A stretch of 59,833 nucleotides of DNA from Catajapyx aquilonaris (Eukaryota): the NCBI GenBank assembly GCA_000934665.2, contig KZ538131.1, positions 62,001 to 121,833 on the forward strand. The letters run 5' to 3'. The notes below the pieces were generated by a model, which was not told where the DNA came from, did not search any database, and was given only the letters and a program-made list of their open reading frames with translations. Both the position numbers and the translations under genes were made by a program. Of this stretch, positions 1 through 48,207 are shown piece after piece. Position 1 is the first letter of the stretch; each line of letters opens with the position of its first letter.

Positions 1-1518
1 CATCATAATGAATTCAAACAAGTACAAGCTAAAATAGTGAACTAAGTGATTGGTTTTGCATGGACTACGTCAGTGTAAAAGAGACAAACGCAGAAGCTCG
101 CCCGAGAGCACATGGTGGTTCATGATTAAGACGTCTTTTACGGATGCCATAAAAGCTGGTGAGGCTTAGCTGCCCAGGTGAGAGAAGGATAAACCTCATT
201 TTCCAGCTGACGCGAGTTATCTACCGGCTGGGATAACACGTTACATTTCTCCACGATTATAGTTTTAAGCCTGTAGCTATTCATTTGGGAATAGAATTTG
301 ATTCGAGTAATACGCCATTCTTGTGATTAGGAATTAATGGAATGTGAGGCAGCTCACTGATGAATGGACGTGAATAAAACAGAATGCCAAGGAATGGCAA
401 GTTACTGGAGTTAGTGTAATAGGGCAAATGGGAAATTAATGGTTGAAATGAACAGGATGAATGTTGAAATTCAGGTGGATGGGATTGTTCTTTTTACGTG
501 GACCATCACAACTTTCAGTGGAACTTGTCCTAAATCATGTCAAATGTAAACTGAGTTTTGCCCTATGTATTTCCGGTAAATTCCGGAAATCCGCGTATGA
601 AACTCGCAATTTTTCAATCTTCCTATTCAAAATACCCACAGGATAACGCCAGTAACATTTTGACAATTTTTATATATTTTTTCCAGCAATATAAAATAAC
701 GTGCCAGTTTTAGAGTTGCACATTTTTGTACTAAAAGTGGTATTTAATAGAATAAACTGTTTTGCAGTACAGGCTGATACCTTCAAATGGCTTTTGATAT
801 TATTTTCATTAATTCATGTTTTAGTGAACAACTGGCGATCAAAAAAAAAACAGCCATCATCTGCTATTGTCATAATTATTAAAATAAAGGTGGCCTCTGT
901 TTCTTGGCATCTCCTGGGGCGATTTTAAATTGAAAAATTTGAAACCACGAATTTGATTGGGATTTTGCAATACCGGAATACTGTATAGATATGACAAAAA
1001 CGAGTTTCACTGTTTCATCCGACATTATTAGAAACAACTTCACTAAAAATTGGGGTGGTGGGTGAAAAACTATCTGGGAGAGGTCATTAGCTAATGGGAA
1101 ATGAATGGAAATGAATGAGGAATAAACACTGGCTAACATACTGTACAATTCAGAATGGATTTGATCACGAATGGAGACGAATGAGAAGTGAACGGTGAAT
1201 GGAACCAAATTGAATTGACACGAATTGAAGTGAATGGTGAATGACAGTGAAGCGAAAGGGAAGGAAATTGAATTGGATGCTGACAATGGATGTTGAATTG
1301 AATGGGCACAAGAATTGAAAGGAATATCATACATAAGGTTTTAATATATACTTACACCATTTTAAGATTTTGAAGAGTTTTGCAGTGAATGGTATCCATC
1401 TCTGCCTCCAAGCGGTCCACACTACCTATGTAATAATATTCCTAAATGGGATCATATGATATTGTACTGACAATTGTTACAATTTCCAAGTACGAGTTTT
1501 ATTCACCATGAACATTGT

Positions 1519-1608
1519 CTAATTGTTTCTCTCTCTCTCTCTTTCCAGGTAAGAGATGCTTTTATCTACGGTCTCAGTTCCGAGTACCAATGCCAGGCGA
1601 CGGTGAGT
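1519..1608 (+). other. Candidate recursive splice site (AG|GT at 1548/1549) with 54-nt cryptic RS-exon 1549-1602
   Basis: CTAAT branch point 1519-1523, tract tgtttctctctctctctctttcCAG directly followed by GTAAGA; downstream donor ACG|GTGAGT at 1602/1603. Confidence 0.6.
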
Positions 1609-4199
1609 TTCAGCTTACTTTCCTAAGAAAAAAAGCCTTTGCCAGCAGCCGCGGCAAAAGACAAAGGCAAGTCGTATTGGGTACCATGGCGTGACATGCA
1701 GCTACCAGGACTTGTCCGTCGGCTATAGGGTTGCGAATCTCCAAAACGGTGCATGCGTCTCCGACCCTTCCCCAGCGCGCAGATATACTGGAAATAAACT
1801 ACAAAATGGGTCAGCTTCTGAGAAGCCCCCGACTTAAAAGTCATGTCCCCTAAATAGGGTTTGGACCCGGATGTCCTAATTGTGTCCTTCCCCCAGACAG
1901 CATGTCGCTCTTAAAAATCGTCGCCAGAGACGTCGAGGAGATATAAATACAACGTGGGGCACTGGCGCCTGATGCTCCTCCGGTGGCGCCATCGTCTGGT
2001 GACGTCTTCCGGTCACTGACATGTTTTGGGGGGTCCCTGTCTGCAAAAGGCTGCCAGGACAGAACACAATGAGGAAACAGCGTAGGACGAGGCTCTGGTT
2101 GCGAGCATTAGCAGGGAGGGAAAAATACGTGCCCTCAAAACGTCAGGCTGAGGGATCATCTCTGGAGTTTACGCGGCGGCTTGCGAAATTTATCGAAAAG
2201 TTCGCCACATTTTGTTTTTCCTCAGTTGGGGTGAGGGTTGCTTGGCGATAGATGATGATGTGGATAAATCTAGAGAGTTAAGAACATGTCATAACGTGAG
2301 ACAGCGGGCGTATGTCATCTCAGCATGTGTATAGATGGCTATTCCTGTGGGTAGGGGATCATGTGATGTATGGGCGAAGGTGGTGAACAACCGAGGTAAT
2401 GGGAGTGAGTGACTCACTTGGCCGATTTTAAGTTGTTTATGCAGCCGAATGGATGACCGTTCCAAGAGATTTTTATCGAACAGAACAGCTCTTTGTCACA
2501 TCTCTTCCGTGTTTACTTTTCAAGGGAAGCAAAGAACGGGACGGGGGTGAAATGGAACTAATAAGTGGAAACTTCTACTTGAAGCAAACGCGCCGAGTCT
2601 CTTGCTCAGGTGTATAGGCATACCTGATTTTTCACTCACAAGTACGGAAATTCGGTTCCACTTGGCCATGATATGAAAACTACATAGAGCACTACTACTA
2701 GCCTACTTATACTATGATGTATAGCACCCTTTTGTGTATGCAGACTGATCGTGCCAGCGAAGATTACTTGGGATAGTGTTGTTGTTGGTGAATCACATAG
2801 GGCAAAAATAAATGTAAACAACAAGATCAAACGGTTAGGCCTATGTGAATAGATATCTTCAAAAATTATTATGGAACAAGGGCCACTAAACATGCCCTTT
2901 GATAAGCCTGCCAGCTGTATCACTAGTGTTCTTGCATGCATTTAATTCCTTTTGTGTATTTGCCGTACTTGTACGGTTGTGAATTAAAACAGTTGCCTAC
3001 TTTTTGTCACAGTAGAGCCAACGCTATAGCTACAATAACGTAAGCATTTCACAATATGCGTGCAATGTTCATTTCATAAGGACAGTATCAGCAGCAAGAG
3101 CTCTTAATGAACTAGGAATAGGGTACAAAACGGCCATTCAGCATCGTGTGCTGAGTTTTAGTGCAACTTAATTTTCGGATAGAGTTGAACTAAGAACTTG
3201 GAATGGCCTCAGTATGCCATATGGTATATAATGATGTCAAAATCGCACTTTAGATAATTGATCACTTTGCATCATGTAAATAGGTGACGTTTGTGTGTTA
3301 AAAGGAGACTTAGAAGTGCTAACGTGACTCCACGACACGATTTCAAACTGAGCATGGTGGCATATGCATATGTCAGAGAAATAAGGGAAAATGTTGTGAC
3401 ATGTATACTGGCTGGACTCTCCAGCCTTCCGCTGATCGCCTCAGTGTCTATAGCAGTAATACCTAATTACGGCTACATGTCCATAGAATGCAGTAGAGAA
3501 CTGAATGCAAAGCTTTATAGTAGTCATTCAGAGTGGTCAGTTCATCCCACGGAAGCGTCAAGTCTTATTTTAAGACTTAAAATACGCGATAGTACGTAAC
3601 TTTAGTTAGGAGGCATCAACATTGCATGGAACATGAATATGCATAGATAATATACAGGCTTGGTCCAGGTAAAGTGCTGCTGACCTTCTCTCACTCATTA
3701 CGGTATTTTGAAGCGCATTTTAATGATTGTTTCGTACAGTTTTAGGAATTTTGTGTGGCATTTGTAGGACAGTGCCGGGTGCTTCTATTGAATGGTATAT
3801 AGCGACGTGAAACCATCACAATGGGCACTTCTTTGCTTACTTCCCGGAAGGTGATCCGGAGACGTCACAATTCTGCAGGGCAGTGACTTAGACGCCTCTG
3901 CAGATAAGTGTATTGCAAAGTTAGGCTTTTAAATTTTGTTTGCGGTAGTTGCATTAAGTGTTCTAATGTCGGCAGCATGTGGTAGCTGTAGAAGACATCA
4001 GAAAGGTGAGACTGGAGAGGCTCTTTATAGGGGCTAACAGCCAGCAGCGTGATGTGGGAAAGCGGTTGACACCCTGCGCGACAATGTCAGTATATAGTGA
4101 GGGGTGGTGAAGATGAGCTGCAAAACATAGGGCCTGTCTATTTTTGCCTTGAGGGGATATAAGTGTGTCAGATCGGGCTTGATGAGCCTGGCTATAGAG

Positions 4200-16873: not shown

Positions 16874-17097
16874 ATGAGCTCGGGTTTGACGGACATCTTC
16901 GAGATGACCTCACCCCCCGACGGAGGTGGACAGAACCAAGGGACGGTGGTGGCGACGGCCGGAATGATCGGGGTCAGTGTCAACGTGGTACCACCGGCCT
17001 CGCCCCCCAACACGGTGCCCACGCTGAAGCACAAGCTGGACCTCAGCGACAATGCCACTTTGCTGGCGGTCTACTGCTTCATCAAGAATTTTATTGG
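16874..17097 (+). CDS. bun: TSC22/bunched-like protein, distal alternative first coding exon (MSSGLTDIFEMTSPP...YCFIKNFIG)
   Basis: GC-rich coding-like ORF ending ATT GG|GTGAGT (phase 2); joins exon 35300 as GG+C = Gly in frame with ASGTSTVAIDNKIEQAM. Confidence 0.75.
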
Positions 17098-20000: not shown

Positions 20001-23000
20001 GGTGTGACGTTTGATAAGAAATACGACTCGCGTCTTGTGGTAAAAACAACTTGTGGACTTTTGAAAATGTGGGTTCGGTGTATTGGGGGCGTGAGGCACA
20101 TGGGACATTTGGTTTTCCGAGCGGATATCACTTGTATAGCATTCAATATTGTACCGGCTGTATTACCCGAAATTCCATCGCGTTCTTGGACGCAGATATT
20201 GGCCGTAGAAACATCAGAGATAGGCGTTGTTGTTCGTGATTGGCGATGTATATGGCGTCAATGAACATGCCCCATGGGGTTAAGAGTTATCTCGCATGTG
20301 AGAGCCAACTCGCGTGTACCGCGATTATTTTCCAGACGGGCTCATCCAACGATGGCATCCACTCCGCACGGAGGTGCTCCAGTGACAAGGAAGAGTTGGT
20401 AAATCGTGACGTCAACAGGTGCAGTTTTCTCGCCACTTCCGAGAGAGGTCAGAGAGGGGGAAAAAAACAAAAAACTTGAGCTGTGGAACCGAATGGGCCC
20501 AAATTAATTCTACGGGAAGTCCCCGAAGAGCGTGGCCATGTATAAGGTACGGCTGATAAGGAATGGTGTTGGATGATAGCGGCATGACGTGTGATCTCAT
20601 GTTGACATATAAAACTCGTGCCGCGATAAAAGGCGACTCCCGTGTTGGAGCACGTGGCGGTGAAATACTCGGTTTCACGTAGCATGTACGGCTCATGCGG
20701 AACAGCAGTTTCACATTTCTGTTTGTTTTCATTTTTTGGGGGGTAAGAAACTGGAGTGCGCCACACCTCTTTTGCATGCGAGGGGGTGACGTATTGCCGG
20801 CAGATGCTGCTTTTCTTCCTGTTCCGTATGAGCTCGTGCTTTCGAATTTTTGCTGGGGTGTTAGCAAGCACTATCACCATGATTTTGGAGTTGTTTTAGT
20901 GATGACCTAGTTACCAGGGAGCTGCCAGCACCGCCCTTTTGGTATTGATTTTTGGGGAGGATAAAACGAAAACAGTTTTTTTTTGTGCTGCCGATTTCCA
21001 CGCAGCAGATTTTGGTCACGTGATACCGCGGCACCTTGACTGCAATTGGATTAATTAGCGTCGTTCTTCCACACCCTATGCGAAATTCATATTTGACCCC
21101 AAAATGTCCCGGGCAGGTTATAGAGGGTAGGAGGTGGGGGAATACCAGGCGTGGCTGAAAATGACGTGCCAAGTGGCAATTATCTACGAGCTTCTTCCCC
21201 GCGACCCACTTTTTTATATACGAAAAATGTGAAAGGGGCTATTATTGCGATCTGGAGTCTATTATAAGTCCATTCCGCCGCCGCGCACCTGTCAACGCAG
21301 CAAAGGTATCCAAGTAGGACACAATGCTCCAGTATTAAATTTTGGTGCGAGAGAGCAGAAATGCGGGCGAATCACAGTTCAAGGTTTTCTATTTCTGTGG
21401 GGGGTATATAGGCTTTTTTTTATATATAAAAAAAAGAGTTGGAAAAGAGGCACGTGAGAATGGTGGCCAGATAAGGCGAAGGAAGACGGTATTGTTAGGC
21501 TCGCGAACTGGTTCACCCTCGTGTAGATGAAGGCGATGCGTTTTCGGAAGATATTTTAAAGCTGGGGCACAATGATCCAGATGTTGCAAATTCTGGCAAA
21601 TTTGCAAGGTCGTGGCCCAATAATAATTTTTCGGCGGGCCGAGGAACCTTGGTTTTTAGCAACAATGCGGCCGAGGAGATGCCGGGCTGGAGCCGTAAAG
21701 TGTTTGGTCACATACCACATCACTTTGTTTCCCGCCAGAGCAATTGGGGGTGCTCGTTTATAGGACCGGTTGTATCAACCGGGCCTACAAAATCAGCAGC
21801 ACGTTTTATCGTAAAATGAGGGATCCAGTGATATGCAAAGAATGCGTGAAATATGGCGACTTCTATTGTGCTGATTTTAAGTGCAGTGTTAAAATTTGTA
21901 GCGCAGGGCAGGGAATTTTTTTTCAGACCCCCATGTCACCTGGTAACCCAGTCTGTGCCAGCGGAAGCAACTTTAGCGGGGGGGGGGGGGGGGGNNNNNN
22001 NNNNNNNNNNNNNNNNNNNNNNNNNNNNNNNNNNNNNNNNNNNNNNNNNNNNNNNNNNNNNNNNNNNNNNNNNNNNNNNNNNNNNNNNNNNNNNNNNNNN
22101 NNNNNNNNNNNNNNNNNNNNNNNNNNNNNNNNNNNNNNNNNNNNNNNNNNNNNNNNNNNNNNNNNNNNNNNNNNNNNNNNNNNNNNNNNNNNNNNNNNNN
22201 NNNNNNNNNNNNNNNNNNNNNNNNNNNNNNNNNNNNNNNNNNNNNNNNNNNNNNNNNNNNNNNNNNNNNNNNNNNNNNNNNNNNNNNNNNNNNNNNNNNN
22301 NNNNNNNNNNCCCCCCTTTCTGGCCTTGGTGCTAATTCAAGGCCGGAAGGAGCCCCCGTCTCTTTGGCCCTCTTCCACGCCGCTTTTGGGAGCCGCCATC
22401 TTTACCTACGTGACCTCTACATGGAATGCAGCCGTATTGCACATTCCGGCCCGCAGAAGGGCAGCCCGGACTCTCTCCGGGTGATTGTTGACATGGGCCA
22501 CGTGTGTCCTGTGCCACCAGGGGTTAGGGCCGTAACCATAAATTTGGAGGGCTAAGGGATTCTTGGCTGGGATAAACTGCCCTGTTGACGTCGCTGGTTG
22601 GCCCATAGGAAGAGAGAGAGAGGGGGGGGGAGGGGGGGGGGAAAAAAAAGAGACATTGGCTAAGCACCCAAGGAGCCTCCGTGTTATACACCACATGTAA
22701 TGTGGAGGATCTGTCATCTAGTAGCTACCCACACATGCGGCGCTTCGGAGGGCTCCAGTGCGCTTGGAGGTGTTATTGGGAGAACATGTTGGATTTTTGG
22801 TTAGTGAGGACGGCCGTATAGCGAAATGGTACACAAAGTCGGGGTCATGGAGGAGAGCAAGAAGCGTCTCAACTGTAGGCTCTACCGGGTGATGAGGTAA
22901 TGCATGTGCAGGTTTTGCTCCGTTGCATGGGTTTGCAGCTGAACATACTGGGCGCCAATGTCATATTGAATAGCTAATAGCGGTGGGCTTCCGAGCTTCA

Positions 23001-26000: not shown

Positions 26001-27417
26001 CCCAGGACTAAGTGGTCGTAGGCTGTCGTTGAACTCTGGCACGAAGGCATCTATAAAAAGCAAAAGGTCATGCTAATAATTAATCCCATAAAGAACAATA
26101 GGCCAATGAGTGTCGCAGTCATCAATAAAAGTCGTGCACTCGACATAATGACGCGCGACTTCCGACCCCGTGGTCACCTTCATCACTTGTGAGAGGAAAT
26201 GATATTGCTGAGGCACATCGGATAGGCAAAGATGATAGGAGCTAAGAGAAAGGAGCCTGCTGGGGGTGCTTTTCTGTGCCTCCACACTTTGCCCCCTTCC
26301 TGGCCCTCCCTTCCACCCCGGGCTCCCCAACCTCCTTAGTAATGGCACGCATGCGCAGGGACTAACCTTTTATGATCAAGTCTGCCAGAGACGCGTCAGT
26401 GTTCCGTGGGCACCAACCTTTGTGCTGCCGAAATCTTCGAAAAAGCAAAACGGGGGACGGTATGGGTCCTTGATAGGGACCCGGAGCCCCTCCTGGCGTG
26501 TGCTGGGTCAGCCAAAGAGGGGTAGGTCAAGGGTCACGGTGCATGATTGCGAGAGAGGCATGCTATAATTTTCTGACATACGCACCTGCTAGAAGTATAG
26601 TTTGGTAGGTTATGAGGGTTGGTATGTACTGTATGTAAGCGCGGACATTTTGTCATATTTATATTTATTTATATATTAGGAGGAGTCGTGCACAAAATGT
26701 CCGAGTAGTAGGCGTCCAGGCAAGAACGGGACCTGGGCAACATGCCAGGGAATGTAGGTCCTGCCAGGGAAATTATTGATTCTCCTAGCCAAGCCGGCCC
26801 TAAGTCGGTCTGCCACTAAACCGGATAGTTCTGGTAGCTTTGCGGAACATTGTCCCCCCCCCCCNCCCTACTACCCCCGCACTAGTCGTTTAGAGTTGGC
26901 TGTCAGTGTTATGGTTATTGCCGTGTGACATAACAGTTGGCGGCGTGAAGGGAACGGAATATTTGTGTATGTTACACCTGTTCGTGGGTAACTGTTTTGT
27001 TGGTTCATATTAATCTTACGGGTTGTCTACCTCGCGGTAGAGTTCAAATGGCACATTGAAACATGGGACAATTGTTGTGATTAGGAACTGGTCCGTGTTG
27101 ACATATTGGTGTAGCTTGCCTATAGCTAGTCGTGTCGATCAGCATTGTTTTCGTACTTCCGTTTGGTGCGATAGAAATACTCGGAAAGTTATGCGTCGGC
27201 ATCGGAATACCGCAAATGATATGTTTCTCCTGTTATGATGTATTCGAGCTTGAAATAGCACTGACGTCACACGACTTAATTGTTAGCTACAGCGTTCATG
27301 TCGTTGAGTCATTGTTGCTCATTGTCATGTCAATATTCTGATACTTGTGTATTACACTTGTCCGTTTTATATACTGAAGGTGTATGTGTATGTATGTATA
27401 TGTAATCCTGCACGTTT

Positions 27418-27510
27418 TTAACGCCAAGTCTCTCTCTTTGTAGGTAAGTGTCGAAACATGATTGACAACAATGCCTGGCCATGGGTTGCTAACCAGAAGG
27501 TCACGTGAGT
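27418..27510 (+). other. Candidate recursive splice site (AG|GT at 27443/27444) with 61-nt cryptic RS-exon 27444-27504
   Basis: TTAAC branch-like 27418-27422, tctctctctttgTAG followed by the perfect donor GTAAGT; downstream donor CAC|GTGAGT at 27504/27505. Confidence 0.6.
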
Positions 27511-30500
27511 GTGTGAGAATGCATGTGGATTGAGTGTACGCTGCTGTCTCGAGTAAGCCAAAGTAGTAGACCATAATTATCAGCAAAGCGAGAAAAAAAA
27601 ACCCCCCGTTGCATCACTCTTGTATTGGTAACAAGAAGGTTAAAAATCGCAATGAGCCTCTTCTACGTCACGCAGGTCGTACCACCCGCGACCGACCAAT
27701 TGTAGAGAACCTTTCAGGGGTCAGCGTCACCGGGTAATCAATTCTTTCTGTGAAAGGCGGGCTCTGTAGTGCTTGGGACGGCCGCAAGGAAAATACATAC
27801 CGGATCGGTTTGGTGCAGGTTCATTACACCGAAACTAACAGGTCCGATACTGTAAAAGGGCGAACCGCGGGCGACCAAACTAATGCAAAGCTCCGATTTG
27901 GCCAATTGGCGACAGGTGAGCGTGGGCGATACTAATTCTCGGAGGCGCTTCGCCAGTTAGTGGCTAGGTGGCAGGAGCGGGCCAAAACACCCTGCTGCGA
28001 TTCTGCCGTAGGGTGGCGCCTAGCGGCAGCGGCTGGAACTTGGTGGTTTCAGGCTCGCGAATGGTGGCGCCAACCAGCGACCGCCTGCGGAATTACTAGT
28101 GGCTCAAGGACGGACCATTTTAATTTGAACAATAAATTGAGCTTAAATATTTAAATGGCAGGATGAATTCAATTTGAATGCAGTTGACGACGTCAAGACG
28201 TCATTTCCTATCCGTCCAGACTAGATGCTGATTGAGTACGGTGCTCTGCCATGCCAGAAGGACATTGTATCCTGACATGTTTGCAACCTTGTCGCCTGCT
28301 CTGCTCCACAGGTCGTGTGTGAATAGGCGTGCGTGTTGAATATGTATTGCGGATGGGTTGCACACACCCCCGATTTGGTAGTATTATGGGCGGCTTCAGT
28401 GGAGGAGCGTGTGCGTCGTACGTCAGTATGTCACCGTGTAAATTGAAGCCTTATTAAAGGAACTTGGAAGCGAGCCATGGAGGTTCAAGGCTGACGGATT
28501 CGAGTTTCACGACCGGAGGACCGTGCGGAGAGAGGGAGATCTTGTGTTGTTGTTTATTGCTGTCATAGTTTTTTCTCCCCCACTCGATGGAATATCAGCA
28601 AATTCCTAACTGGCGGGGGGTGATGTAATCGCAAAGTGACCTTGGTCCACTTGCAAATGAGGAGTGAAGGTGAATTGGGTTGACCAGTTGCTCACCACGG
28701 ACGTAGTATCATTTGTGGAAAACTGATGGATCGGTTTAAATTTCGAACGTAAACCAGGTCACGGTGCGCATTAATGACGAGTATACGGGCCTATACCGCG
28801 ATGATGCCAGACGCAGAGCACTTTGAGGAGATTGCGAATCACGTGAGACTCCGATTATCTTCCGGCGCAAGTTATGTTCCTTTTCATGCTTAGCTATTCT
28901 CAAGCTTAGACTCATGGCCATATTTGGAGACATTTATGAGATTAGCCTCGTACAAAGAACAGATACGTAACAATTTTATCCGATTGCGGGGCGGACATTG
29001 CCGGGGTGCAGAGAAACGCAGTTGGTCAAAAGAATGGAATTTTTCTGCCTGACATCGCTGCTGATTCTCCAGAATCGTTGCAAAAGTCGCCTACAAGAAT
29101 CAAGTGAAATACAGAGCAGGGTTGCAGATAGTATGTGGTCAAATATAAGAGCGTAGGAAGGGTTAATTTGTTTGCGTTTCTGAATGGAAAATTTGCAAAA
29201 CAACTTAGGGTGCTCATTTTACATACACATAAGCCAGCCTGAAGATGTGGAGCGAGAGATAAAGGAAATAGAACGCGCCGGAAACTATTATTTGGGAAAT
29301 GTGGGGATCATTATTTCGTAATGCTCGAATCATATAATTTTACACGCTTTAGGCGTACTGTATGACGTTCTTTTCTGCATGTATTTAAAAATCGATACCT
29401 ACAGCATGCACTTGTTTAATAATGCAACTCGCGAGAGAGAAGACGGGCCAAGCTTAACAGGTGGCCGTCTACCCCCCACCCCGCCATGTGTTACTATGAG
29501 AGATGTGGTGGGTGACAAGCTACAAATATTATAGCATATATGCTGCATGTCATAGCAATCGGGACAATTATTCCGTGAACAATTTAAAATAATTTGCATA
29601 TAGATGTTATCCGTGTGATAGTTTTGAGGGCCCAGAATTTCCCCCAGTTAGATGTATCACGCCGACAACCTTGCCCTACTTAAAAGAATTACATGGCAAG
29701 AGATGAAGAAAGTGTAGAACATTGTGCGTAACACAATTGACGCGATTAAATATCTCTCGCACGATTTTTGAGGAATCCAGAGCTTATTACGCGAGCATGC
29801 TGCAAGTGGAAAAAGAAGGAAAAGTCGAATTATTTCGCATTTAAAAAAACGATTGGTCAGTGAAGGTACCGATCGTTTGGGGTGCAGCATATATATAGGC
29901 TACGTCTTCATGGGTACATGGAGTAAGATTGATAAAAAAAAAATCAATTAGTTAGACAAGCTTAAAATTAGGTCCAATCCATATATATCATGTGCCCTTT
30001 TTAAGCCGAATTGCCCGATAATAATGGCGTCCACAACTTTTGATTAAAACATAATGGACAACGAAGATCAGGTCCTTATAATCCAACAAGTCATATCGTC
30101 CACTTGTCAACCGTCCCCTGGGCCGGTAGAGGATGAGTCCATTTGTGAATTACGTTATGGGTTATGCGATTCGTGTCTGGAGTCACGTACAGTATAGACA
30201 TGCTGTATATAGTCACGCTTTCCCGGCTGGTAAATGTGTCTGGGTATTGTCTGTTTTTTCCGGCTCGAGTACAGCACCTTGCATTATTTCATGACAGACA
30301 TGGCCGTAAGCCTATTCAGTTTGTAATATCTCTGTTAGCAATATGATATCCCACTAGACAAGTTCTGAAACTGTAGACTGACCAGTGGGCGGCGGTCTTA
30401 TCATGAATTTAAAAAAAGATTTATTTGACCTTGACTGGACAATGACAATGTGCTTCTGTGGAGGGGCCAATGAAGTTATCTTTTGCCTTCCTCAAAGTGC

Positions 30501-33664: not shown

Positions 33665-33942
33665 ATGTTAGTGATGGTTATGCCGATGCCGATGCCCATG
33701 CCCATGCTGATCCCGATGCCAATGGTGACTCTGCCGGCAGCGGTACCGGCAGCGGTACCAGTTCCCGCCCCCGCTCCAGTGATTAGGCAGAATAGTGCTC
33801 CCAGTGGTTGTCCAGCTAGGCCTGGACCCATTCCGATCATCACGGTCAGCGATCATCAGGACCGTGGTACCGACATGGTGCAGATGTACCGCCAGTATTA
33901 CCGTCCACCGCCCAGGCTGCGCTTACAGAGGGTTCAGTCCTA
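33665..33942 (+). CDS. bun: TSC22/bunched-like protein, proximal alternative first coding exon (Met/Pro-rich N-terminus)
   Basis: ORF MLVMVMPMPMP...RLRLQRVQS ends TCC TA|GTAAGT (phase 2); TA+C = Tyr in frame with shared exon 35300. The frame is open upstream to GTG 33596. Confidence 0.7.
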
Positions 33943-35023: not shown

Positions 35024-35299
35024 TGCGAGGAACGTCAGCGGCAGGACCGAAATCGGCGGGTCGGGTGAACCAGGAAAAGCGATCAGTCGCGGCATCGGCG
35101 GATTGGGAAACCTGGTGACCTTGCCGGGAGGCACCTTGGATGCAAATGATCTTCCTGAACCTACTACCACCCACCGCACCTGGCTTACCCCCGACAAGCG
35201 GCTGGATATTGAATGTGCTTATGATGTGAATAAGGCTGGTTGGCTACACTGTCAATAAACAGTATCTGAATTGTCATTTTTTTCTCTCTCTCTTTTCAG

Positions 35300-35351
35300 C
35301 GCTTCCGGCACCAGCACCGTGGCGATAGACAACAAGATAGAGCAAGCAATG
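35300..35351 (+). CDS. bun: TSC22/bunched-like protein, shared exon (ASGTSTVAIDNKIEQAM)
   Basis: Acceptor tttctctctctcttttcAG, donor ATG|GTAAGT; the peptide is the hallmark VAIDNKIEQAM start of the TSC box. Confidence 0.95.
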
Positions 35352-37043
35352 GTAAGTTTCTGGGTTTGGCAAGGTCGTAGTTTGGCTCGTAGGCGGCGCT
35401 GCCATCTGTCGGCGGCAGTGTTTGACTCGGGCTGGCGGCAGATTCGAAGCTGGGACCAACCTTGAGTCGGTTTTTTAAAAATATTAAAGCTGCGATGTGT
35501 GATCCGGATTAGCAGGCGGGGGCAATCAGGGGTTAAGTGGATGCGATGTCGCATGACCGGCCGGGTTTGCGACGTAATGGCAGACGAATTGGATTTGCAT
35601 AAATGCGGCAGGTGGCTGGCGGGGGGTATTATGTTTAGACTTGGGTCGAAGGGCCTGGGTGACCTGGACTTTGAGGGTTTGGTGGCGGGTCATTTCGACG
35701 CGGGGGCTTTGCAGGCCCGGGGATTGGTGATGTAACTAATGTCAGGAAGCGGGTGAGGGGGCCTGTGTGTGGGGGGGAGGGAGGAGGACGTGTAGCAATC
35801 GTTCAAGGGCAAGGTTGCAGTTGATATTGTGAATATGAGCAATTTCCGCGGAGGTTTTTTTGCTGGGCATTTCTTTTAAAAAGTCGGGAGGGGTATTAAT
35901 AGTGTGGACTAGTGACCTAGATCGTGTCCCAGGAGAAGTGGATGGTTAAAGCGCATGCGGGTAGGCGAGAGAGGAAAGGGAATGTAAAGGGGGGGTTTAA
36001 AAAGGGGGTGGTTGATAGGGTTTGTGTAGAGCGGAGGTAGGCATAAGTGCAGGGAGTACCCGTGAGAATAGGAGGGTGGGGGTGCTGAGTGCATGTCCCC
36101 AGCAGGGGTGTACGGCTGCAGGCGGGATGTTGAGGCAACGGTCTGGAGAAGAAGAAGAAAGGCCAAGGGCCAGGAGGTTTTCGTATTCGGCCCTTTACGA
36201 GGTGCGGAGGAGAGGTCAGAGGGATGTGTGCTACGTCTTGATTCCGGATGAGCAAGTAAGGGTTGGCTCTGGGGCCAAATTGTTGTCGAGGGTCGGAACT
36301 CCTGGCATAGTTGATATTACGGTTGCGCTGAACATTGTTGCTATGTGCAGAGTGCAGCACGTCAAGTGCCAAGTTTTTGTACTTGTACAGGAAGCCACAG
36401 TGGGGACAGATAAAAGGAATGAGGTTGGACACACACAGGTTGTTATCTTACACAGTACGTCCAGTGTGTTACATGGTTCTAAGGGAATAAGTTTTTAAAA
36501 ATTTGAAGCACGGTGCCAACTGCTTGGTTTTTTGCCTTCCCAATCAAAAATGCGACAACAATGTCGATTGATAGTGATGGGAAATGTGATATGCCAAAGG
36601 GAGGGAAGAGCAACTTGCTTCCAACTGGGGATTTTAATAAGTGTGAACTTAACTCCTTAATAGCAGAATCGCCCTGTAATTTCATCAAAAATATTGTGAT
36701 TTTTTTACTGAACAAGTTTTGGTAATATGCAACATATTAGAAAATCCTGCATCAGTCCATAATGAACCCTATAATAGGCAAGTTTCACTGTATTATTTAT
36801 GGGAAAGGATGATTGACAGCAGCTCCTAGTCACATGGTGGAAGTGAATTCCACAGGTAGCTGGATAGTCCAGAAGCAAGAACTGCTGTTGGTAACTGTTG
36901 CCTTTAGTTGTGCATACCTACGCAGGAATATGAAAACAGGGATGCAAGGGAAGAAAACTGCGTGAAATGTGGCATTTTGCCTGCAGTTGTGCCTGGTAAT
37001 AAAATTATGGTACATGGTAACATGTAATTTTATCTTTCACCAG

Positions 37044-37256
37044 GATCTGGTGAAGAGTCATCTGATGTTTGCAGTCCGTGAAGAGGTGGAGGTCCTGAAA
37101 GAAAAGATATCTGAGCTAATGGACAGGATCAACCAACTTGAGTACGAGAATGGCATCTTGAAGGCAAATGCCACTCAAGAAACTCTGGCCCAGCTGACCC
37201 AGCCCCCACCCAAGAACCAGCAGCCTCCAGGTGGACCGCCATCGTCCGTGTCCTAA
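37044..37256 (+). CDS. bun: TSC22/bunched-like protein, terminal exon (TSC box + leucine zipper)
   Basis: Acceptor atctttcac[43 protein letters not shown] is the canonical TSC22 domain; stop TAA ends at 37256. Confidence 0.96.
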
Positions 37257-38955: not shown

Positions 38956-40023
38956 GCTTTAGAGACCGTCCGTCCGCCTCCAAAAGCTGTCTGACTGGCT
39001 TGAAAATACGTGCTAATATATATGAATATATAATGCTGCGTCGCTATATATTTATATAATATTGCTTTTTCTTTTAACTTGCCGGTTGCCGCCCTAGGCC
39101 ACGGCCTCGTGTGACCTCACGGCTAATCCGCCACTGGCTGTAATACTAACTAACGTTGAAACTAAGAGTTGAAAAATTGACTGGACAGTGTGTACAGCAG
39201 GGTTGCTTCCCATTTGATTACGTGATGTGACCGCCTGCTCCCGCTAGCCGAACATGTGCATGTGCATAAATTTTTTTAAGGTTTGGCAGTTATTCCTGCC
39301 AACTGGCATTTTTGCCTGTCCCATAGGTTTTTCACAATGGCTTAGGCTCATTTTTTATTGACTGCACCTTATACATGAGGATGTACTCCAGTTAACATTT
39401 GCAGTAGAGCCAAGCCATCATCAGTTTTCAAATCAGTTGATTGGAGCATTGCAACACTTAATGCTGCAAACTTTTCACCCAACCTGGTAATGACAGTGAG
39501 TGGACTAACAGACAGGAGAAACTGTCATACAAATGAAGGGTGTTGTGGAAAAAGGTGATACTCATTTTTGACCTGAACACCTAGCAGCAATGTAAAAGAC
39601 ATGACAAACAGTATGGTATACTCCAAGTTCACGTATCATGCACGAGACAGCCACACGGACTAGATCAAAACCCACATTCCCCATGATTTGTTACGAGAAT
39701 GCAAACTTAAATTCGCTCTCCTGAAAAATTACACTTTTGTGGGTGTTATCACCTTTGTCCACCACACCCCTCAAATGAAACTCACAAGTAAGTCTAAATT
39801 TGATGGTAGCAAGCCAGGATTTGTCTTCACTACTATGTAAGCAAGTGCAAGGTCAAATATTTCCTTTGGATGATCTCAAAACTGGTTTTTTGTACCTACA
39901 AGTTAGTGGGGGGGATTTCTCCTGTATGCTCATGACATATAACCAGGGTGGTGCCTTAAAGTTTAAAATAGCACATCTGTGCTACATCCTCCTAATTCCT
40001 GGCATACTCCTCATTTTACTGAC

Positions 40024-40493
40024 CTGAGTGAGTCAGAAACCGTGGTGGCAACCTGTTGTGCTGTAGCAAAAGGCTGTTCGCTGAGCTTCACACCATCTTT
40101 TCTTTCCTCCTCTTTTGGCTCCCTCTCCACTCCGAGATTTAGCACCACCTGGCATTTCGAGAGGAACCCTGGGAGTGGCCCTAGGAGTCCCTTAGAGGCC
40201 CGGTCAACGAAAGATTCACAGCTCTGCTTGAGGTGCCGATCTACCTCCTTCTTTGAATCCCTGCAGTATTCCACCACTTGAGGGGTGCCCTCCAGAAGAA
40301 ACTCCAGCAAAGAATTGTTGCCACTCAAGGAGAAGAGACGACCTCGCTTTTGCACTAGGCCAGCGGCTGCTGAGCGGACTCGAGAGAAATCCAACGAGGT
40401 CTCCCGAACGGAGAAGTCCACATGGAAGGGGGCAATCTGTTCACGAACTATCAATAGGTGTTTGATCAGGAACAGGTGCCCATCCAGTGGGGT
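40024..40493 (-). CDS. COG3: COG3 exon 6
   Basis: tttCAG|ACC ... CTC AG|GTCAGT; DGHLFLIKHLLIVREQIAPF and NNSLLEFLLEGTP are COG3 motifs. Confidence 0.93.
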
Positions 40494-40738
40494 CTGAAAG
40501 AGGAAGCACAGTTGCACAGCTTGAGTAAAGATGAAATTGAAAACGAGTGTGCCACGTGTTGGTCAAAATATAGTGAAACTTTTATTAAAGTAAACTGCCA
40601 GTTTCAGGAGGAGGAAATTTTATTAAATGGCTTGGCAACACCAAATGTTCATGTTAGTTATTGGAAGAGCATTTCAGGAATAAATAAAAAATTACCATGT
40701 GTCATTTACAGACTCAAAATGCACAGACTAGATAAGTG

Positions 40739-41026
40739 ATTTCCCCCACCGAGGGGGATTAGCCATGGTCGGCGCTCGAGTCACTTCCCAATGTAGTAGC
40801 GCCTTACCTGGCGGGGAAATTCTGAACCATTAGGGTCGACTCCAATTGGCTGGAGTTATGCCTGGAGTCTTAAAGGCCTCCTGTGGAGAGCCATGTTGTG
40901 GCCCAAGGACACCAGCCAATTGGAGTCGACCCTAATGGTTCAGAATTTCCCCGCTAGGTAAGGCGCTACTACATTGGCAAGTGACTCTAGCGCCAACCGT
41001 GGCCAACCCCCATTGGTGGGGGAAAT
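40739..41026. mobile_element. Near-perfect foldback element (MITE-like) in COG3 intron 5
   Basis: ~115-bp arms (TTTCCCCCACC...CCAATTGGCTGG / CCAGCCAATTGG...GGTGGGGGAAA) around a short loop. Confidence 0.75.
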
Positions 41027-41780
41027 GAACTAAGCTCACGCGAAAAGAGGGAGAGTGACTGGGGGCTGGTCATAGTAGCCTACAGTTCATGTTACATAAT
41101 ATGGTAACTGAGGGCAACTGCCCAAAAGGATAAGTTGTTATCCCAGTATTAATTCTAGAACTTAAATCATTACTGATACTTCAAAACACTCGACCTGATA
41201 ATTTTAAAATTTGCATTTAATGCCATTACCTCAAGAACGCACCCAGTTAGCCTGTCCAATATCAAATTGCATGATTGCTGACAGATTGCACCAACCAAAA
41301 TTACAGATTAGATAGCTCCTAATGTATCGTTAGGAGCCCTAACCTGTGATAACGATCTGTTTGGAACTATCAAGTCGGTAATTTCGTTGGTGCAATCGGG
41401 CTTCAGTCAATAAAAATGGATCAGCCAAATGAATTTCTCTTGTCATGTTAAGGTGGAAGGCACAGTAACCCAGGTGATTTACAGCCTCATTCTGCCTGAA
41501 GGTGGAGCCCACTGCACTGCCTTATCTGAATGCCACCTACTCCAGAAAACTCATCATGATAATTGAGTGATAAGAAGCTCAGAAAGACACCAAGTTGTCA
41601 GGCCTTGCATATGATCACTTACAAGGTCCTTCGTCTCAAATGGTGTGTGACAACTCAGCATCTTGCAAAGAAGCTTCACATTGCCTCATGCTATTGTGGT
41701 GGATTGTCTGGCGCACCCCCCCCCCCCCNCCCCCCCCCCCCAAACTCCCTACTCCCTATCTAGCCATATGGGGAAAGCCA

Positions 41781-42079
41781 TGCGCTTAGCTAGTCCCCAA
41801 TCCCTGGATGTGGAGCACTGTACTGTACCAGATCGCATTCGGGCGGCCGACTTTCAACCGTTCTGAACCTACCTAAACTGTCAACTCTCATTCGGCCCCT
41901 GTTTGCAGATCCATCAGCCACCCTAATGCGATTTGGAATGGTCCAAATCGTATTTGGGTGGCTGGTGTGGTAGATCTGCTGAATGGGAGTTGACAGTTTA
42001 GGTAGTTTCAGAAGTCGTCTGCCCGAATGCGATTTGGTACAGTGCTCCACATCTGGGGATAGGGGACTCGCTAAGTGCA
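41781..42079. mobile_element. Foldback element (MITE-like) in COG3 intron 5
   Basis: Arms TGCGCTTAGC..GATGTGGAGCACTGTAC..TCGCATTCGGGC / GCCCGAATGCGA..GTACAGTGCTCCACATC..GCTAAGTGCA. Confidence 0.75.
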
Positions 42080-42943
42080 CACGAAAAGAGAGGGAGTTGC
42101 AGGGGGCTGGTCTGGAGTGAGTGGCATCAGGTTTTGGGTTAGGTTAGGTCTGCCTTAAGCCAGAAGCAGGGTTGTAACCAGATCTCTTCTGCAGAGCAGA
42201 AAAGTTTGGTTGACATCGGAGCAACTACATCATCAGTGGGAAGCAAAACATTGGACTCCTCCTCCCCAAAGCAGACATGGGTCTGCTCTGCAGCAAAGCA
42301 TGCAGTATGATAAGACGTGATGATCTTAACATACAGCCACATACCCAAGAGAACTTGAGGATATAATTTTTACATGTAGAATTGAGCTTCCATTGTTTGT
42401 TTGGTCAAAAGAAGTGGCTGTGTGTTCTTATAATACTCAGTCTGGTCACTTCGCCTCTTATCGCATTCAGGGGGTTGACGGGGTGGTAATGCGGTAGGTG
42501 GCCACAGCAGAGCTTTCCGCCATGCCTTTAATAGCATTTAATAGAAGACAAGGTAGATTTCCACTGTGTCTTCTGTTAAATGCATCTTTGCCAGCTAGGT
42601 TTGCAGCAAGTGCTGCAGTAGCCACTCCACTCTGATGTCAATCAGATCCATGAAATATGAGACATAATTGAAATTTTAACAATTTGGTTCCTGGACTTAT
42701 TCACAATTATGAATGTGTATGATTCACTGTGGTCCACTCATGCACTGTCACGCGTGAGACCCTTGTCCTACCACGTGTATTTTATAGAAAGTATAAGTCA
42801 AGTAACCTGGAATGTGGTGTCTACATCTAATAATTTCGCTTGTAAGGAAACTATTGTCCATTCACACGTTGTGGGGTAGGGTTCTATCTATCCCTTCCAA
42901 CACAGGTTACAATTACAATGAAAAGTTAAGAGTTCAGCCTAAC

Positions 42944-43274
42944 CTTCCTCTTTGAGATGGCCTGAGAGGCATCAGCTACACTCTGAACACAGGCAGTGAG
43001 TGCCTCTTGAGCCAGCCCCTGGCAGATGCTCCGATCCAAGCACCGGTACAGCTTTGAGAGGCACACCAAAGTGCGTCTAACAGGAGGATACCACATCCCA
43101 TGAAGGTCAGCAGGAGAAGTTGGAGTGGCTACCTCTGCAACCCCTCCAGTGATCTGTGCCACCTCATCAGATGTAGATGAGGCAGCTGAGGATGAACCCT
43201 GCTGTTGCAAAGACTCGGCTATGCTCTCCATCATCTCCAACTTCTCTGGGTATGCCAAGTCGCCTGGAGCAGGC
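42944..43274 (-). CDS. COG3: COG3 exon 5
   Basis: ctctcCAG|G CCT ... AAG|GTTAGG; PAPGDLAYPEKLEMM and DLHGMWYPPVRRTLVCLSKLYRC are diagnostic COG3 sequences. Confidence 0.95.
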
Positions 43275-43649
43275 CTGGAGAGGGACAAAAAAGTTAAATT
43301 GCTTATTTTTATGATGCATCTTTGGACTTGTAGAGGTTATCAAAAATATGAGCTGATAATATTCTGGTGAATGGAATCACCCTGTATTGAAATGAATATC
43401 CAAACTTACAACATTGCATATCACACATTTTGGCCCATTGTGCAAGAGGTCAATGGTTGAAGCCATGTAACTTAACATTATAACCTAATATTTTTGAAAA
43501 CCTCCTCAAGCAGGTCCAAAGTTACTGTTTAAAAGAAAGCATTTAGTGTGAAAACAAATCTAACCACTAGGCTCTACAACTGGAATACACAGCCTTCAAA
43601 AAAAGACAAATATCCTTAACATATCTGACTGTAATGCTTCCTCTGAAAG

Positions 43650-43972
43650 TTTTTTTTTTTTGTAAGTACCCCGTGCTAGGGCCGTACGGCCCTCTTAGTG
43701 GGGTGGGAATACCACCATATTTAGAACCATGTGTATAATTATACAATTATTTAGTTGGTCCACGATTAGGGTAAGTAGGAGGGGATGTGCAAAGTGCAAG
43801 TGCAATGTCGTTGCTTGGCCATTTTGTGAACTCCCCCGGGTGGATTAGTCTAGTGGAAATTTCCACCCGAGACGAAGCCAGAGATGGCCCAACTCTGCAC
43901 GAGATGAAGGGGGGGACCCCGGGACCTTACATCCGTGGGCGTGTGCGTTACCGCAGCACCACTTCGCCTCCC
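43650..43972 (-). mobile_element. tRNA-derived SINE (head of the 59335 family, different poly(A) tail)
   Basis: 43776-43972 aligns by eye to the reverse complement of 59335-59550; 43650-43720 reads ...CTAAGAGGGCC...GGGGTACTTAC(A)n. Confidence 0.65.
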
Positions 43973-44045
43973 TTCCCTCTGAAACATTTTAGGTGCATGG
44001 AACTCTTTATTCGCTTGATCCAAAGGAGGCATCTTATCAGCTTAC

Positions 44046-44657
44046 CTGTATCTCAGAATGTCAGTCTGAATGTATATGTGTGTCCGGTATACTAGTCTCT
44101 CCTGCACATCCTGCAGCAGCTGGGATGCCACCCTCTCAAAAGCCTCTAACGGACCCGAAGCAACTCCTGTTGTCTCCAGTCGCAGTATGGCACACAACTC
44201 GGCCAATGTCTCCAAATGATCCACATGTATGATGGAAGGTCGAAGTGCATCATACAACTGGAGGCACAAGGTCTCCAGGAAGGAGGTGAGTGGTGGGGAA
44301 GCAACTGAGAAAAACTGAAGATACAGCTGGTGCTCATCTTCACAGAGCCGGACTAAAAATGCACACCCACTGCGGACCAGGGTACAGTGGTCACGCCGGT
44401 GTGTACTAGCCAGGTCACCAACAGTTAGAGCAACACTGGCAGAGAGGAGCTCTTCCCGCAGGTTTACATAAAAATTGTGGCATTCAGAGAGGAGAGAGTC
44501 ATATTCAGGGATGCCACGGCGGCGTTCCATTTGTGTCATTAACACCTTCATTTTTGGGGCACACTGGCGAAACCGGCCATAGTAGAGTGAAAAAGACGCA
44601 TCGGCTGGCTCACTCTCTGTATGCTGCGAGGCAGTGCGAAGAGTGTTTATCACATAC
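44046..44657 (-). CDS. COG3: COG3 exon 4
   Basis: ccttgCAG|G TAT ... TAC AG|GTAAG; DHCTLVRSGCAFLV, HLETLAELCAIL and DVQERLVYRTHIYIQTDI. Confidence 0.95.
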
Positions 44658-44831
44658 CTGCAAGGAAATGTTCAGATTAGTGTGGCATTTTACAGAAGCT
44701 ACCAGCTAGGATTTAATTTTTTTTAGATGGTAATTCAGGAGCAAGAGGTATGGAGAGTTATATCCTCCTGCCAACCTCAGATCCAAGCTTCCTTCACACA
44801 TCACATTATAATTTATTCGTATTATACTTAC

Positions 44832-45184
44832 TGTCTGACCATAGCTAATGCTCGGTTGAGGCATGACTTGAGTCGTGCTAAATATGCTGGCGCTTCTTTG
44901 TATTTAGGATTGGCAGCCATGTGTGCAATGCAAGCATCGATCTTATCAAGCATCGGAGCAAAAGATTCACTGGTGACAGACATGACTGGGGAATTTAGCT
45001 GCTGCGTGAGGCGATCCAGTTCAGTAAAGTAGGAAAGCTGGAATTCAACCGCTTCTGCTGTCGAGTTCAGCCTGGCCTGGTCCTCCAGAAGATGTTCACA
45101 GGCTTCATGCAAGGAGTTGGTCTTGTTGGACACAAAGCGATACTGCTCACCAAGTTTGGAGAGTTCGGCCAGGGAAGTCTCCAC
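44832..45184 (-). CDS. COG3: COG3 exon 3 (Sec34-like N-terminal domain)
   Basis: ataCAG|GTG ... AGA CA|GTAAGT; QYRFVSNKTNSLHEACEHLL and CLNRALAM. Confidence 0.93.
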
Positions 45185-45957
45185 CTGTATAGAGAGAACA
45201 ACGTGCTTTGAGATATATTCATTTCAATCTGAGTGATGCTTCACAGAACAGAAACTGGTTCCTATAATTGAAGTGTTAAGAAGTATGTTGAGCACACTAA
45301 CTCCGAAGGACATGGTGAGGTCCTTATGGGAAAAGTTGAGCCAGATGGATTTGGCTGAAAGTTGCTCAGTTGATAGACCTGGACCTTAGGGTCAGTTGTT
45401 CTGAAGGCCGAAGAAAATCTACTGTGCCGTGTGGCCACTAGAGGCACTCAAACACATTCATAGTGTTTTCCACAATCAGGTAAGTATAGCTGTTCTTGTT
45501 TGTAAAATATCTTGTCCGTATCTTCAGCGTACGCGTAAGCGGAAAACTAGGCGATGGCGGGTATGGCTGGTCCTGCGTGGTGGAGTTCTCATCGCCTAGA
45601 TTCTAGGTGGCTGGGGCTCACGGGGTTAAGGGTTGCAACACGGTGCAAAAAGTATCGGACAATAATTATCAAGCTCAGTAAATGTCAGTTATAGTATACA
45701 AAATGTCACTCAAAAAATCCACGGTCACCTACCAATGCTGTAACAATTGAAAAAAAAAAAAAAAATGATTTCAATCGATGATTTCTTGTGTCAAGAATAC
45801 ACTCCGGGTCTAGGGTCTAGACACATCTGCACTAAATTTAATGCTGCTAGTGAAAGGACCTATGGCTTCATAAAAATTCACACAGCTTCCTGATGTTATC
45901 ATCCATGCAAATCCTAGAATTAATACAGTGCCCTAGTTATAATATTGACTCAATATG

Positions 45958-46447
45958 CAAGGTGTTCTTACTAGTATGTTGTTCAGTCAGCAGTGTATTC
46001 CCTGGCCCAAAATAAGGCAAAAATACAAGGGTGAGAAATGTCAAGGGAGCAATCATAAATGACATAGACAAGATTTGGGTTCTTCTAAGACAAACACCAC
46101 CACTCACCCAACAGTTGTTTTGTATAGGGAAGGCGGTAAACTGATTGTCTCCTGTTCATGCAGGGGTGGCCTAAGTGGTAGGAGATGATCCCACAAGCAG
46201 GGATTCATATCGGAATCATATCCTGCCACTTAGGAAAGAACTGCATGAGCAGAAATATAACTGTTTGCCACCTTCCCTACAAAAAAAAGCTGCTGGGTTA
46301 GTGTCAGTCAGGAGAACCCAAATGTTCAATTGCTTTCAGCATCATTAACAGTTGTTCCCTCGACATTTCTCACCACTTCACTTTTGACTTATTTCGGGCC
46401 TAGAAATATGCTGCCACATAGACAACATACCAGTAAAAAACACCCTG
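45958..46447. mobile_element. Degenerate full-length palindromic Tc1/mariner-type MITE
   Basis: CAAGGTGTTCTTACTAGTATGTTG ... CAACATACCAGTAAAAAACACCCTG-TA; symmetry continues to a centre near 46212. Confidence 0.7.
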
Positions 46448-47504
46448 TATGCTATGGAACTGATTTAGTGGAGTGAAAATGAAATTGGAACCATACACAT
46501 TTACCATGCATTGCATGCCAGTGGTACAAGAAACTGTGACATCTGGTCAGACACTGGTCAGTGACACTGGGGAGGAGAGAGGTTAGGATAGCTAATTGCC
46601 TCATTTGAGGCTGTGTTTGGCCTGAAATGTTGTTGGTACTTGAAGCACAGTCAGAAGAATGGGATAGCTAGGTTCCATGCTCAGGATATCTTGTATAGTC
46701 GACACACTGTAAGGATAGCGATGAAAAGGCTAGTGCAGCATCATCCTCCCACCCTCCAGCTAAAAAAAATAATAAAAAATTGGAAGACTGTACAGTTGGG
46801 GAAAGGCAATGTCACATAAGTACCTGTAATGGTTGCCAACAAATGAAATGAGACAAAAACAAATGACACCCCCCCCCCCCNCCCCCCCCCTACGAATTTT
46901 GAGGGCCTTGTGTTATGAAACGGACGGATATTTTGGTTCCGGTGTTTTGCCTACAAAATAAAAAAGTAGGTAAAAACATAGAAATCCATTCTATGGTGAT
47001 AAGTTAGTATAAGAGCAGTGTACAAAATGCATTTTACAAAACAAAGGACCAAAAATTGCACCTGAAATAAGAGTGGTAAGAGATACATATAAGTAGGCCT
47101 ATTGTAAGGACATATCAAGTGGGATTGGCAAGAGTGGTAGTAGCTCCGTAGTTAGTCTGTCAGCCTCGTAGTCAAAATAAGTGGGTCTGACTCACTTCCA
47201 GAGCTATCAAGTCTCAAGAAAGTAAAAATTCTTCAGCGAGTTGTGAGCTAGGCTGGGCGGAGAAGCGTGGAGGGGGGAATTGGTAATAAGGGCAGCACCA
47301 CAGTTTTTTTTTTTAGTTGTTTTTTTTTTTTTGCCAGATTTCATTGATTTATCATGTAATTTGCTCACATTCTGAATCAAATATGGTTTTAGGTGCAAAT
47401 TTATGTGGATCGATATATTACACCATGCATGCTCAGTTTGTGCAGATTTTCTTGGTTGTTTCATGCATGTCGGGTCTGACCATAGTCTAAAGTTATGCCC
47501 ATAC

Positions 47505-47759
47505 CTGGTTTAAAAGTGTGAGACACTCATCACTGTGCGCATTGAGCCTGTTGACATATGCCTGGTGATGCACATCCTCCTCTTTAGCCATCTCGACCTC
47601 CACCTCCGAATACCACGACAGAAACTGCTGTGCCGACTCAATTCGTGTCTCTCCAAGGAGCAGCTTCTCAAAGCAGGTAGGCTTTTCTCGATCGCTTTCT
47701 TCCTTCGCCGCTTCCTGCACCGCAACGTTATGACTAAAGTCGGCATCCCCTGGCAGCAA
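47505..47759 (-). CDS. COG3: COG3 exon 2
   Basis: ttaCAG|TTG ... AAC CAG|GTATGG; RIESAQQFLSWY matches the COG3 N-terminal region. Confidence 0.9.
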
Positions 47760-47870
47760 CTGTAATGTAAATCCCCCTGTAAAACCTGTCACGCTTTGCG
47801 CTCTGCAACACTAATCCACTGGCACTTTACTGTACTGCCTGCCTATTGTGTACCACAGTATGCTAGTTAC

Positions 47871-48098: not shown

Positions 48099-48207
48099 CC
48101 TCTCCCTAGTCTGACCGACACCTACATTCGAGACGATACTAACGATACAAGTACCAGTATCACTGTCGCTGTCGCCCTCTATCTTTCCTAGTAGCAAAGT
48201 TTTCTAA
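48099..48207. promoter_or_regulatory. Putative compact bidirectional promoter
   Basis: 109 nt between divergent ATGs; CpG-retaining; DRE-like TATCGTTA / TATCGTCT on the - strand; AAATGGCG at the + strand start. Confidence 0.45.

Follow-up and report, generated by a model that had tools for sequence, protein, structure and literature searches.

A window of 59,833 nucleotides from Catajapyx aquilonaris was analyzed. Over its first 38 kb it holds a gene of the TSC22/bunched family on the + strand. The last exon (37044..37256) carries the TSC22 box, the leucine zipper and the stop codon; it matched Pfam PF01166 with an E value of 5.8e-28 (97 bits against a cut-off of 30) and has 569 homologues in the protein collection. 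Upstream of it lies a shared 52-nt exon (35300..35351, +), which consists of 1 nt followed by ASGTSTVAIDNKIEQAM and is the target of all phase-2 donors. Because this exon begins with a single base, it needs two codon bases from the exon spliced to it. Exon A (16874..17097, +) provides them with 74 codons plus GG and exon B (33665..33942, +) with 92 codons plus TA, both ending in phase 2 at the donors GTGAGT and GTAAGT, respectively. Exon C (36127..36255, +; 43 codons) ends in phase 0 and is spliced straight to the last exon, whereby the AIDNK exon is skipped. Thus, the window holds three alternative first coding exons and not two, as a preliminary description of this DNA had it. Exon A had no homologue at E ≤ 0.001 among 128 candidates and belongs to no Pfam family. 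Exon C proved to be homologous to the N-termini of cockroach and katydid isoforms, and an orthopteran TSC22D3-like isoform shared 13 of 25 N-terminal residues with it. The TSC22 exons resembled those of polyneopteran insects most. Between 1 and 35 kb, the + strand contains no large open reading frame suited to a long-isoform exon; such an exon, if the species has one, therefore lies beyond the window.

The full palindrome of the cAMP response element (CRE), TGACGTCA, is present in eight copies in the window, as compared with 0.67 expected, and all of them are located inside the TSC22 locus (6880-33366). Copies precede exon A (at 16341), exon B (at 33359) and a splice-like unit at 27444 that is described below (at 27262). 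This distribution suggests CREB/ATF-type control of several promoters of the locus.

The remainder of the window was also inspected. Exons of COG3, which encodes subunit 3 of the conserved oligomeric Golgi complex, occupy 40011-48203 on the - strand (COG3_C, E 3.3e-53). The protein was 52-58% identical to that of animals of many phyla, and 58% was the highest value in the collection, which consequently contains no close relative. Mariner-like open reading frames at 51.8-52.6 kb appeared transposase-like and were discarded as candidates, as they matched no Pfam family at E ≤ 0.001. Close inverted repeats of a small foldback or MITE-like kind (118 nt at 92%, 99 nt at 99% and 73 nt at 99% identity) and a 181-nt tandem repeat in three copies occur near such frames, the intervals being 40739-41026, 54083-54634, 53295-53656 and 51225-51790. 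Runs of N at 21995-22310 and 48969-49090 are flanked by G or C homopolymers, and the apparent inverted repeats at these two places are an artefact of the Ns.

The feature under study is an exon-like unit of 54 nt at 1549..1602 on the + strand, 33.7 kb upstream of the shared exon. Its acceptor region (1508..1548) contains CTAAT at 1519-1523, a tract made up of pyrimidines only and CAG at 1546-1548. CTAAT is the branch-point consensus of flies. Its second A is located at -27 from the junction 1548/1549, and the + strand is AG-free from there up to the acceptor. All 20 nucleotides of the tract are pyrimidines (19 of 20 in a 20-nt frame shifted by one base), and TT is found at -6/-5, the sequence being TTTCCAG. 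GTAAGA, the candidate regenerated (ratchet) 5' splice site, follows immediately 3' of the acceptor AG (1549..1554), and a downstream donor, read from the sequence as GTGAGT (1603..1608), closes the unit, which is a candidate RS-exon. The preliminary description had put forward a ratchet-type layout made up of CTAAT, a pyrimidine tract, CAG/GTAAGA (the slash marks the junction) and GTGAGT 54 nt further on. Each of these elements is present on the + strand at the positions given above, and the layout agrees with that of Drosophila sites in the TT at -5/-6, the pyrimidine tract, the branch-point motif between -36 and -21 and the donor about 50 nt downstream.

The strengths of the two donors were judged by consensus match, the last three bases of the regenerated donor being those that a predicted exon beyond the window would contribute. 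GTAAGA at 1549 matched the consensus at five of six positions, with A instead of T at +6, whereas G/GTGAGT at 1603 matched at all six and in addition carries G at -1. The 1603 donor is therefore at least as good as the regenerated one, which makes inclusion of the unit a live option.

Translation of the three frames revealed what inclusion would mean. When entered in phase 2, the unit reads xxG TAA, and the other two frames are open. Both points had been made before, and they were borne out by the frame translation and by the single codon-completing base with which the shared exon starts. As TAA is the first codon, the unit cannot extend an upstream frame; it could only poison the message or start translation anew. 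The earlier proposal of a poison exon was thus correct with respect to the immediate stop, but a reading as poison only overlooks an ATG at 1556. The frame runs G TAA, GAG, ATG, and from this ATG it stays open for 15 codons and two further bases, CG (1556..1602), so as to end in the phase needed by the shared exon at 35300. The unit does not conform to expressed RS-exons of the Ubx m1/m2 type: 54 nt is a multiple of three, but the G TAA interrupts translated continuity.

Several further motifs surround the unit. Degenerate, satellite-like tracts rich in GAATG/GAATT lie just upstream on the + strand (300-480 and 1080-1320); GGAATG, a TEAD-type motif, was not enriched in the window (35 copies, 38 expected). 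At 172-183 (+), at a distance of 1.37 kb on the upstream side, the sequence CAG/GTGAGA resembles a donor, and TCAGT near 69-73 resembles an initiator. Were an exon to end at 177, the 1549 unit would be an ordinary second exon. About 400 nt downstream of the unit, an TATAAATA box (at approximately 1942) and a 7/8 CRE (at approximately 2000) are found together in 1930-2010 (+), and they may mark a further promoter of the locus.

The motif at 1549 is more than chance. In the window, the pattern of nine pyrimidines, any nucleotide, CAG and GTRAGT was matched twice with at most one mismatch, as compared with 0.12 expected matches, and none of 100 shuffles yielded two or more. First-order Markov sequences (n = 2000) contained on average 0.136 fly-type sites per window, defined by at least 14 pyrimidines in 20, TT at -6/-5 and AG/GTRAG. 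When GTRAGT was demanded 30-100 nt downstream, the mean dropped to 0.0035; 0.35% of the sequences contained at least one such site and none of the 2000 contained two or more. An independent count gave the same picture: 2 of the 40 acceptor-like sites on the + strand of the window were followed by GTRAG (0.13 expected), and 0 of 42 on the - strand. The sense strand carries both ratchet-like sites (1549 and 27444), which are followed by GTRAGT at +54 and +61, respectively. A set of 80 TSC22 loci of other invertebrates, taken from metagenomes, served only as a background of real DNA, since none is closely related; it contained no ratchet-like site in 357 kb (714 kb for both strands). Such sites are therefore not a general trait of the family, as far as these mostly short loci show. 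An accidental origin, with a (CT)n microsatellite lying next to CAGGTAAG by coincidence, could draw on the CT/GA microsatellites that the window contains at 14.06, 16.44 and 22.6 kb. It is opposed by the pattern, the Markov sequences, the acceptor-site counts and the 80-locus background alike, as well as by the suitable spacing of CTAAT and by GTGAGT at +54. Moreover, (CT)5 on the + strand occurs only at the 1548 acceptor and at the real acceptor (35284). We consider this explanation highly improbable. A weaker AG/GTAAGA is found at 13865 (+), approximately midway between 1549 and 27444; it has 13 pyrimidines in 20, and neither TT nor a nearby donor accompanies it.

Other origins were considered as well. 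A derivation of the two units from a repeat or transposon was rejected because none of the repeat families of the window covers 1400-1700 or 27300-27600. The same applies to a non-coding RNA: Rfam yielded no family for the 1549 stretch, and its sole match elsewhere, to SNORD15 at 3425-3555, scored far below the threshold. None of 107 open reading frames on both strands of 1-16 kb exceeded the Pfam cut-off, the sub-threshold matches being of low complexity and stemming from a GA repeat. The - strand open reading frames that adjoin the 1549 unit belong to no Pfam family.

The second ratchet-like unit occupies 27429..27510 (+). It consists of the acceptor TCTCTCTCTTTGTAG, GTAAGT at 27444 and a 61-nt body with an ATG at 27458, and it is followed by a GTGAGT donor at 27505. 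The junction reads TAG/GTAAGT, and the donor lies at +61. This unit is located inside the 18.2-kb intron that separates exon A from the shared exon, and it would split the intron into 10.3 and 7.9 kb, values within the range of segment sizes given for flies in the portions of the literature covered here. Like the ATG at 1556, that at 27458 opens 15 codons plus 2 nt and ends in phase 2. In the consensus comparison, GTAAGT preceded by the final GG of exon A was better than C/GTGAGT, a donor balance that corresponds to the fly pattern of a fully skipped unit. Judged by donor strength, 27444 is a better candidate than 1549 for a classic, fully skipped ratchet point.

Comparison with the shared exon showed where the acceptor of the 1549 unit has its closest counterpart. 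The exact 15-mer TCTCTCTCTTTNNAG is found on the + strand of the window only at 1534, at 27429 and at 35285, the real acceptor of the shared exon, although only 0.04 occurrences were expected. When 80 other acceptor-like sites were scored against the 50 nt before 35300, the 50 nt that precede 1549 came by far the closest, with a score of 22; the next site reached 12, and the background of scores against the real acceptor had a mean of 4.9 and a standard deviation of 3.1. In blastn, 1508-1548 and 35255-35299 were reciprocal best non-self matches (77.8% over 45 columns, E 0.001), and the alignment ended exactly at both AGs. Since no other acceptor-like site in the window resembles the real one as much as that at 1548, a donor suited to 35300 can be expected to accept 1549 too. 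For the body of the 1549 unit, likeness to the shared exon was not significant (1820 of 5000 shuffles reached the score). Weak likeness was seen between the 27444 body and the shared exon (50 of 5000) and between the two bodies (87 of 5000). The flank upstream of 27444 did not significantly resemble that of the shared exon, nor did the downstream flanks resemble each other; farther upstream than the 15-mer, 27444 had no likeness to the real acceptor. End-to-end alignment of the 1549 unit with the shared exon by MAFFT called for a gain of 8 nt, which holds GTAAG, and a loss of 6 nt. What the DNA itself shows for the 1549 unit is how it is built, that it is not random and that it resembles the real acceptor. 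In our reading, the 1548 acceptor either arose by divergence from a copy of the real one or was moulded by the same constraints.

The same alignments suit an unused relic. It could be a copy of the 52-nt shared exon, acceptor and donor included, that has since decayed, or otherwise a splice-like sequence, and it would lie in DNA that receives no transcription from upstream or be ignored by the spliceosome. The reciprocal best match, its outlying position among acceptor-like sites and the gain and loss in the MAFFT alignment would be expected of such a duplicate; the donor flanks of the 1549 unit and the shared exon are alike as well, and the part of the window to the left of 1549 yielded neither a promoter nor an exon. 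Nevertheless, a neutral relic whose body has diverged past recognition is unlikely to have retained a perfect pyrimidine tract, a branch-point motif, an AG and two donors of consensus grade. A second unit of like build at 27444 and a strand skew that extends to the left edge of the window (see below) also speak against a relic, and we regard it as somewhat unlikely.

The ATG at 1556 raises another alternative. The 1549 unit might be an ordinary alternative 5' coding exon that is kept in a subset of mRNAs without any recursion, supplying the start codon and a 16-residue N-terminus, in which case GTAAGA would be incidental. In a variant of this idea, a first exon would run through the unit from a start site just upstream. 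The predicted short isoform would comprise about 103 residues (15 + 1 + 17 + 70). The ATG comes after an in-frame TAA, a purine occupies -3, and the 15 codons plus 2 nt that it opens end, like exons A and B, in the phase that suits the shared exon; the 1603 donor has the full consensus. The 27444 unit likewise has an in-phase ATG. Within 18 codons, such an ATG was found at 8 of the 47 GTRAGT motifs of the window, and at only 6 of 45 once the two units are set aside. Given this background, the pair of in-phase ATGs is suggestive (p roughly 0.02-0.03) but not decisive, and a single in-frame ATG would arise by chance in about 13-17% of cases. Among the best 120 of the 569 homologues, 19 proteins, from other invertebrates, have a Met-led N-terminal stretch of 7-31 residues before the AIDNK motif. 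On the other hand, by eye no N-terminus among these best 120 resembled the peptides from ATG 1556 or ATG 27458, and no matching short protein was among them, the top identity being 94% over 74% of the last exon. An exon that opens with GTAAG after a perfect acceptor should furthermore be rare unless selected. A start exon without recursion is therefore judged to be unlikely.

Any use of the unit would require transcription across it, and strand composition gives one indirect hint of this. The + strand of 1-16 kb has more G than C (skew +0.113; 16 of 16 1-kb windows positive), and so does the known intron at 17.1-35.3 kb (+0.131; 18 of 18), the two not being distinguishable (p 0.26). For the rest of the window, the skew was +0.018 with 14 of 21 windows positive (Mann-Whitney p 2.5e-4 against 1-16 kb). 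Masking of simple repeats did not alter this result. A G-over-C skew of about +0.12 is thus uniform over the TSC22 span (1-38000) and ends with the gene, as seen by comparison with 38500-59833. COG3, which is encoded on the other strand, had no mirror-image skew (+0.021); the skew is therefore no general mark of transcription here, and the argument built on it is weak. With this restriction, the skew fits one transcription unit that enters from an upstream promoter left of the window. Such a promoter had already been postulated, and it is compatible with a skew that equals that of the known intron and reaches base 1. We infer that the 1549 unit resides in a long 5' intron whose upstream exon lies outside the window.

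Taken together, these results are compatible with a functional recursive-type unit at 1549 that is skipped via its own regenerated donor and that is poisonous or start-supplying when kept, a reading to which we give slightly less than an even chance. In transcripts from a promoter left of the window, the upstream exon would be spliced to 1549 as soon as the acceptor had been made. This step would rebuild a donor composed of the exon end and GTAAGA, and the rebuilt donor would then remove the remaining intron, with either the 27444 unit or, in a single step, the shared exon at 35300 as its target. In the mRNA, the 54 nt would normally leave no trace. If the 1603 donor won, the unit would be kept: behind a coding upstream exon it would present an immediate TAA, and behind a non-coding leader it would offer ATG 1556 for a short isoform. 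Transcription across 1549, use of the acceptor and the outcome of the donor competition are inferred from the DNA. The 1549 unit is accordingly offered as a well-founded prediction and not as a discovery.

A more elaborate scenario would unite the acceptor likeness, the donors and the start codons. The units at 1549 and 27444 could be old copies of the 52-nt exon of the gene together with its acceptor, rendered harmless once a donor had arisen at the first base, and now acting as promoter-dependent switches. After a coding exon they would be removed by recursion, with failure poisoning the message; after a non-coding leader they would be kept, each giving a start codon and a 16-residue N-terminus. 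We regard this scenario as distinctly improbable. If true, an exon copy that gains a donor at its first base would be a route for the birth of RS-exons. The acceptor look-alike leads to a testable idea on the origin of recursive sites, and the in-frame start codons to another, namely that one unit might serve both intron removal and isoform choice.

Ratchet points within introns of Drosophila are said to have been described by Burnette in 2005. The Duff 2015 preprint, in the passages covered, characterizes ratchet points by a fusion of 3' and 5' splice sites, TT at -5/-6 in 196 of 197 cases, a pyrimidine tract of above-average strength and branch points at -36 to -21, and places them in introns of 11-133 kb. 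Sections of Joseph and Lai (2021) state that every ratchet point is followed by a cryptic exon of about 50 nt with a donor of its own, that donor competition largely decides between skipping and inclusion and that fully skipped cryptic exons of flies mostly have the stronger ratchet donor; the same sections count over 500 cryptic RS-exons in flies, mostly out of frame, as against fewer than 50 that are expressed. Like the Drosophila sites, 1549 has a fused YAG/GTRAG, TT at -5/-6, a very strong pyrimidine tract, a branch motif near -27 and a donor about 50 nt downstream, and it would likewise reside in a long 5' intron of a developmental regulator. Differences concern the host, which is no drosophilid, the ratchet donor GTAAGA, which is not clearly stronger than the donor of the cryptic exon, and the frame: cryptic exons of flies are generally out of frame in the passages cited, whereas the 1549 unit, with 54 nt, is frame-preserving and contains an in-frame ATG.

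Expressed RS-exons (Ubx m1/m2 in flies and annotated vertebrate cases) are, according to summaries of Hatton 1998, Sibley 2015 and Blazquez 2018, short (51-54 nt) and donor-led, with an outcome set by competition between two donors and with inclusion that can bring a premature stop; all of this would be paralleled at 1549. The 1549 unit differs from them in that its inclusion cannot prolong the upstream frame. The portions of the literature on expressed RS-exons that were covered mention no start-codon role for an RS-exon. The short-isoform 5' exons of TSC22/bunched genes resemble the situation found here in two ways: a single shared exon is reached from a number of promoters and first exons, and the encoded N-termini are very short. 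In contrast to the 1549 unit, they are not reported to be donor-led, and their peptides have no sequence likeness to that of the unit.

For invertebrates beyond Drosophila, our literature search found one case, a site in the 230-kb intron of locust NPF1 that was predicted by motif according to parts of PMC8892266. That site and 1549 are both motif-predicted in a non-drosophilid arthropod; the locust site has indirect evidence from U2AF65 RNA immunoprecipitation, as described in the same parts, whereas 1549 is a prediction from sequence. Excerpts of a 2026 review name recursive splicing only for Drosophila, mouse and human.

The closest parallel is provided by the fly member of the same gene family, bun, for which recursive splicing is documented. 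Portions of the Pai 2018 supplement list it (FBgn0259176) in five rows of the site table, four of the sites being located in an intron of 59 kb and the fifth in one of 18.9 kb; the two that were examined are of high confidence and also contained in Duff 2015. In the same portions, GTAAGA is the ratchet donor in 2 of the 47 accepted fly site rows examined. If the prediction for 1549 is true, recursive splicing of bunched reaches beyond flies, and the presence of two matching sites in a bunched-type gene of an invertebrate so distant from flies would point to an old or repeatedly evolved way of handling a long 5' intron.
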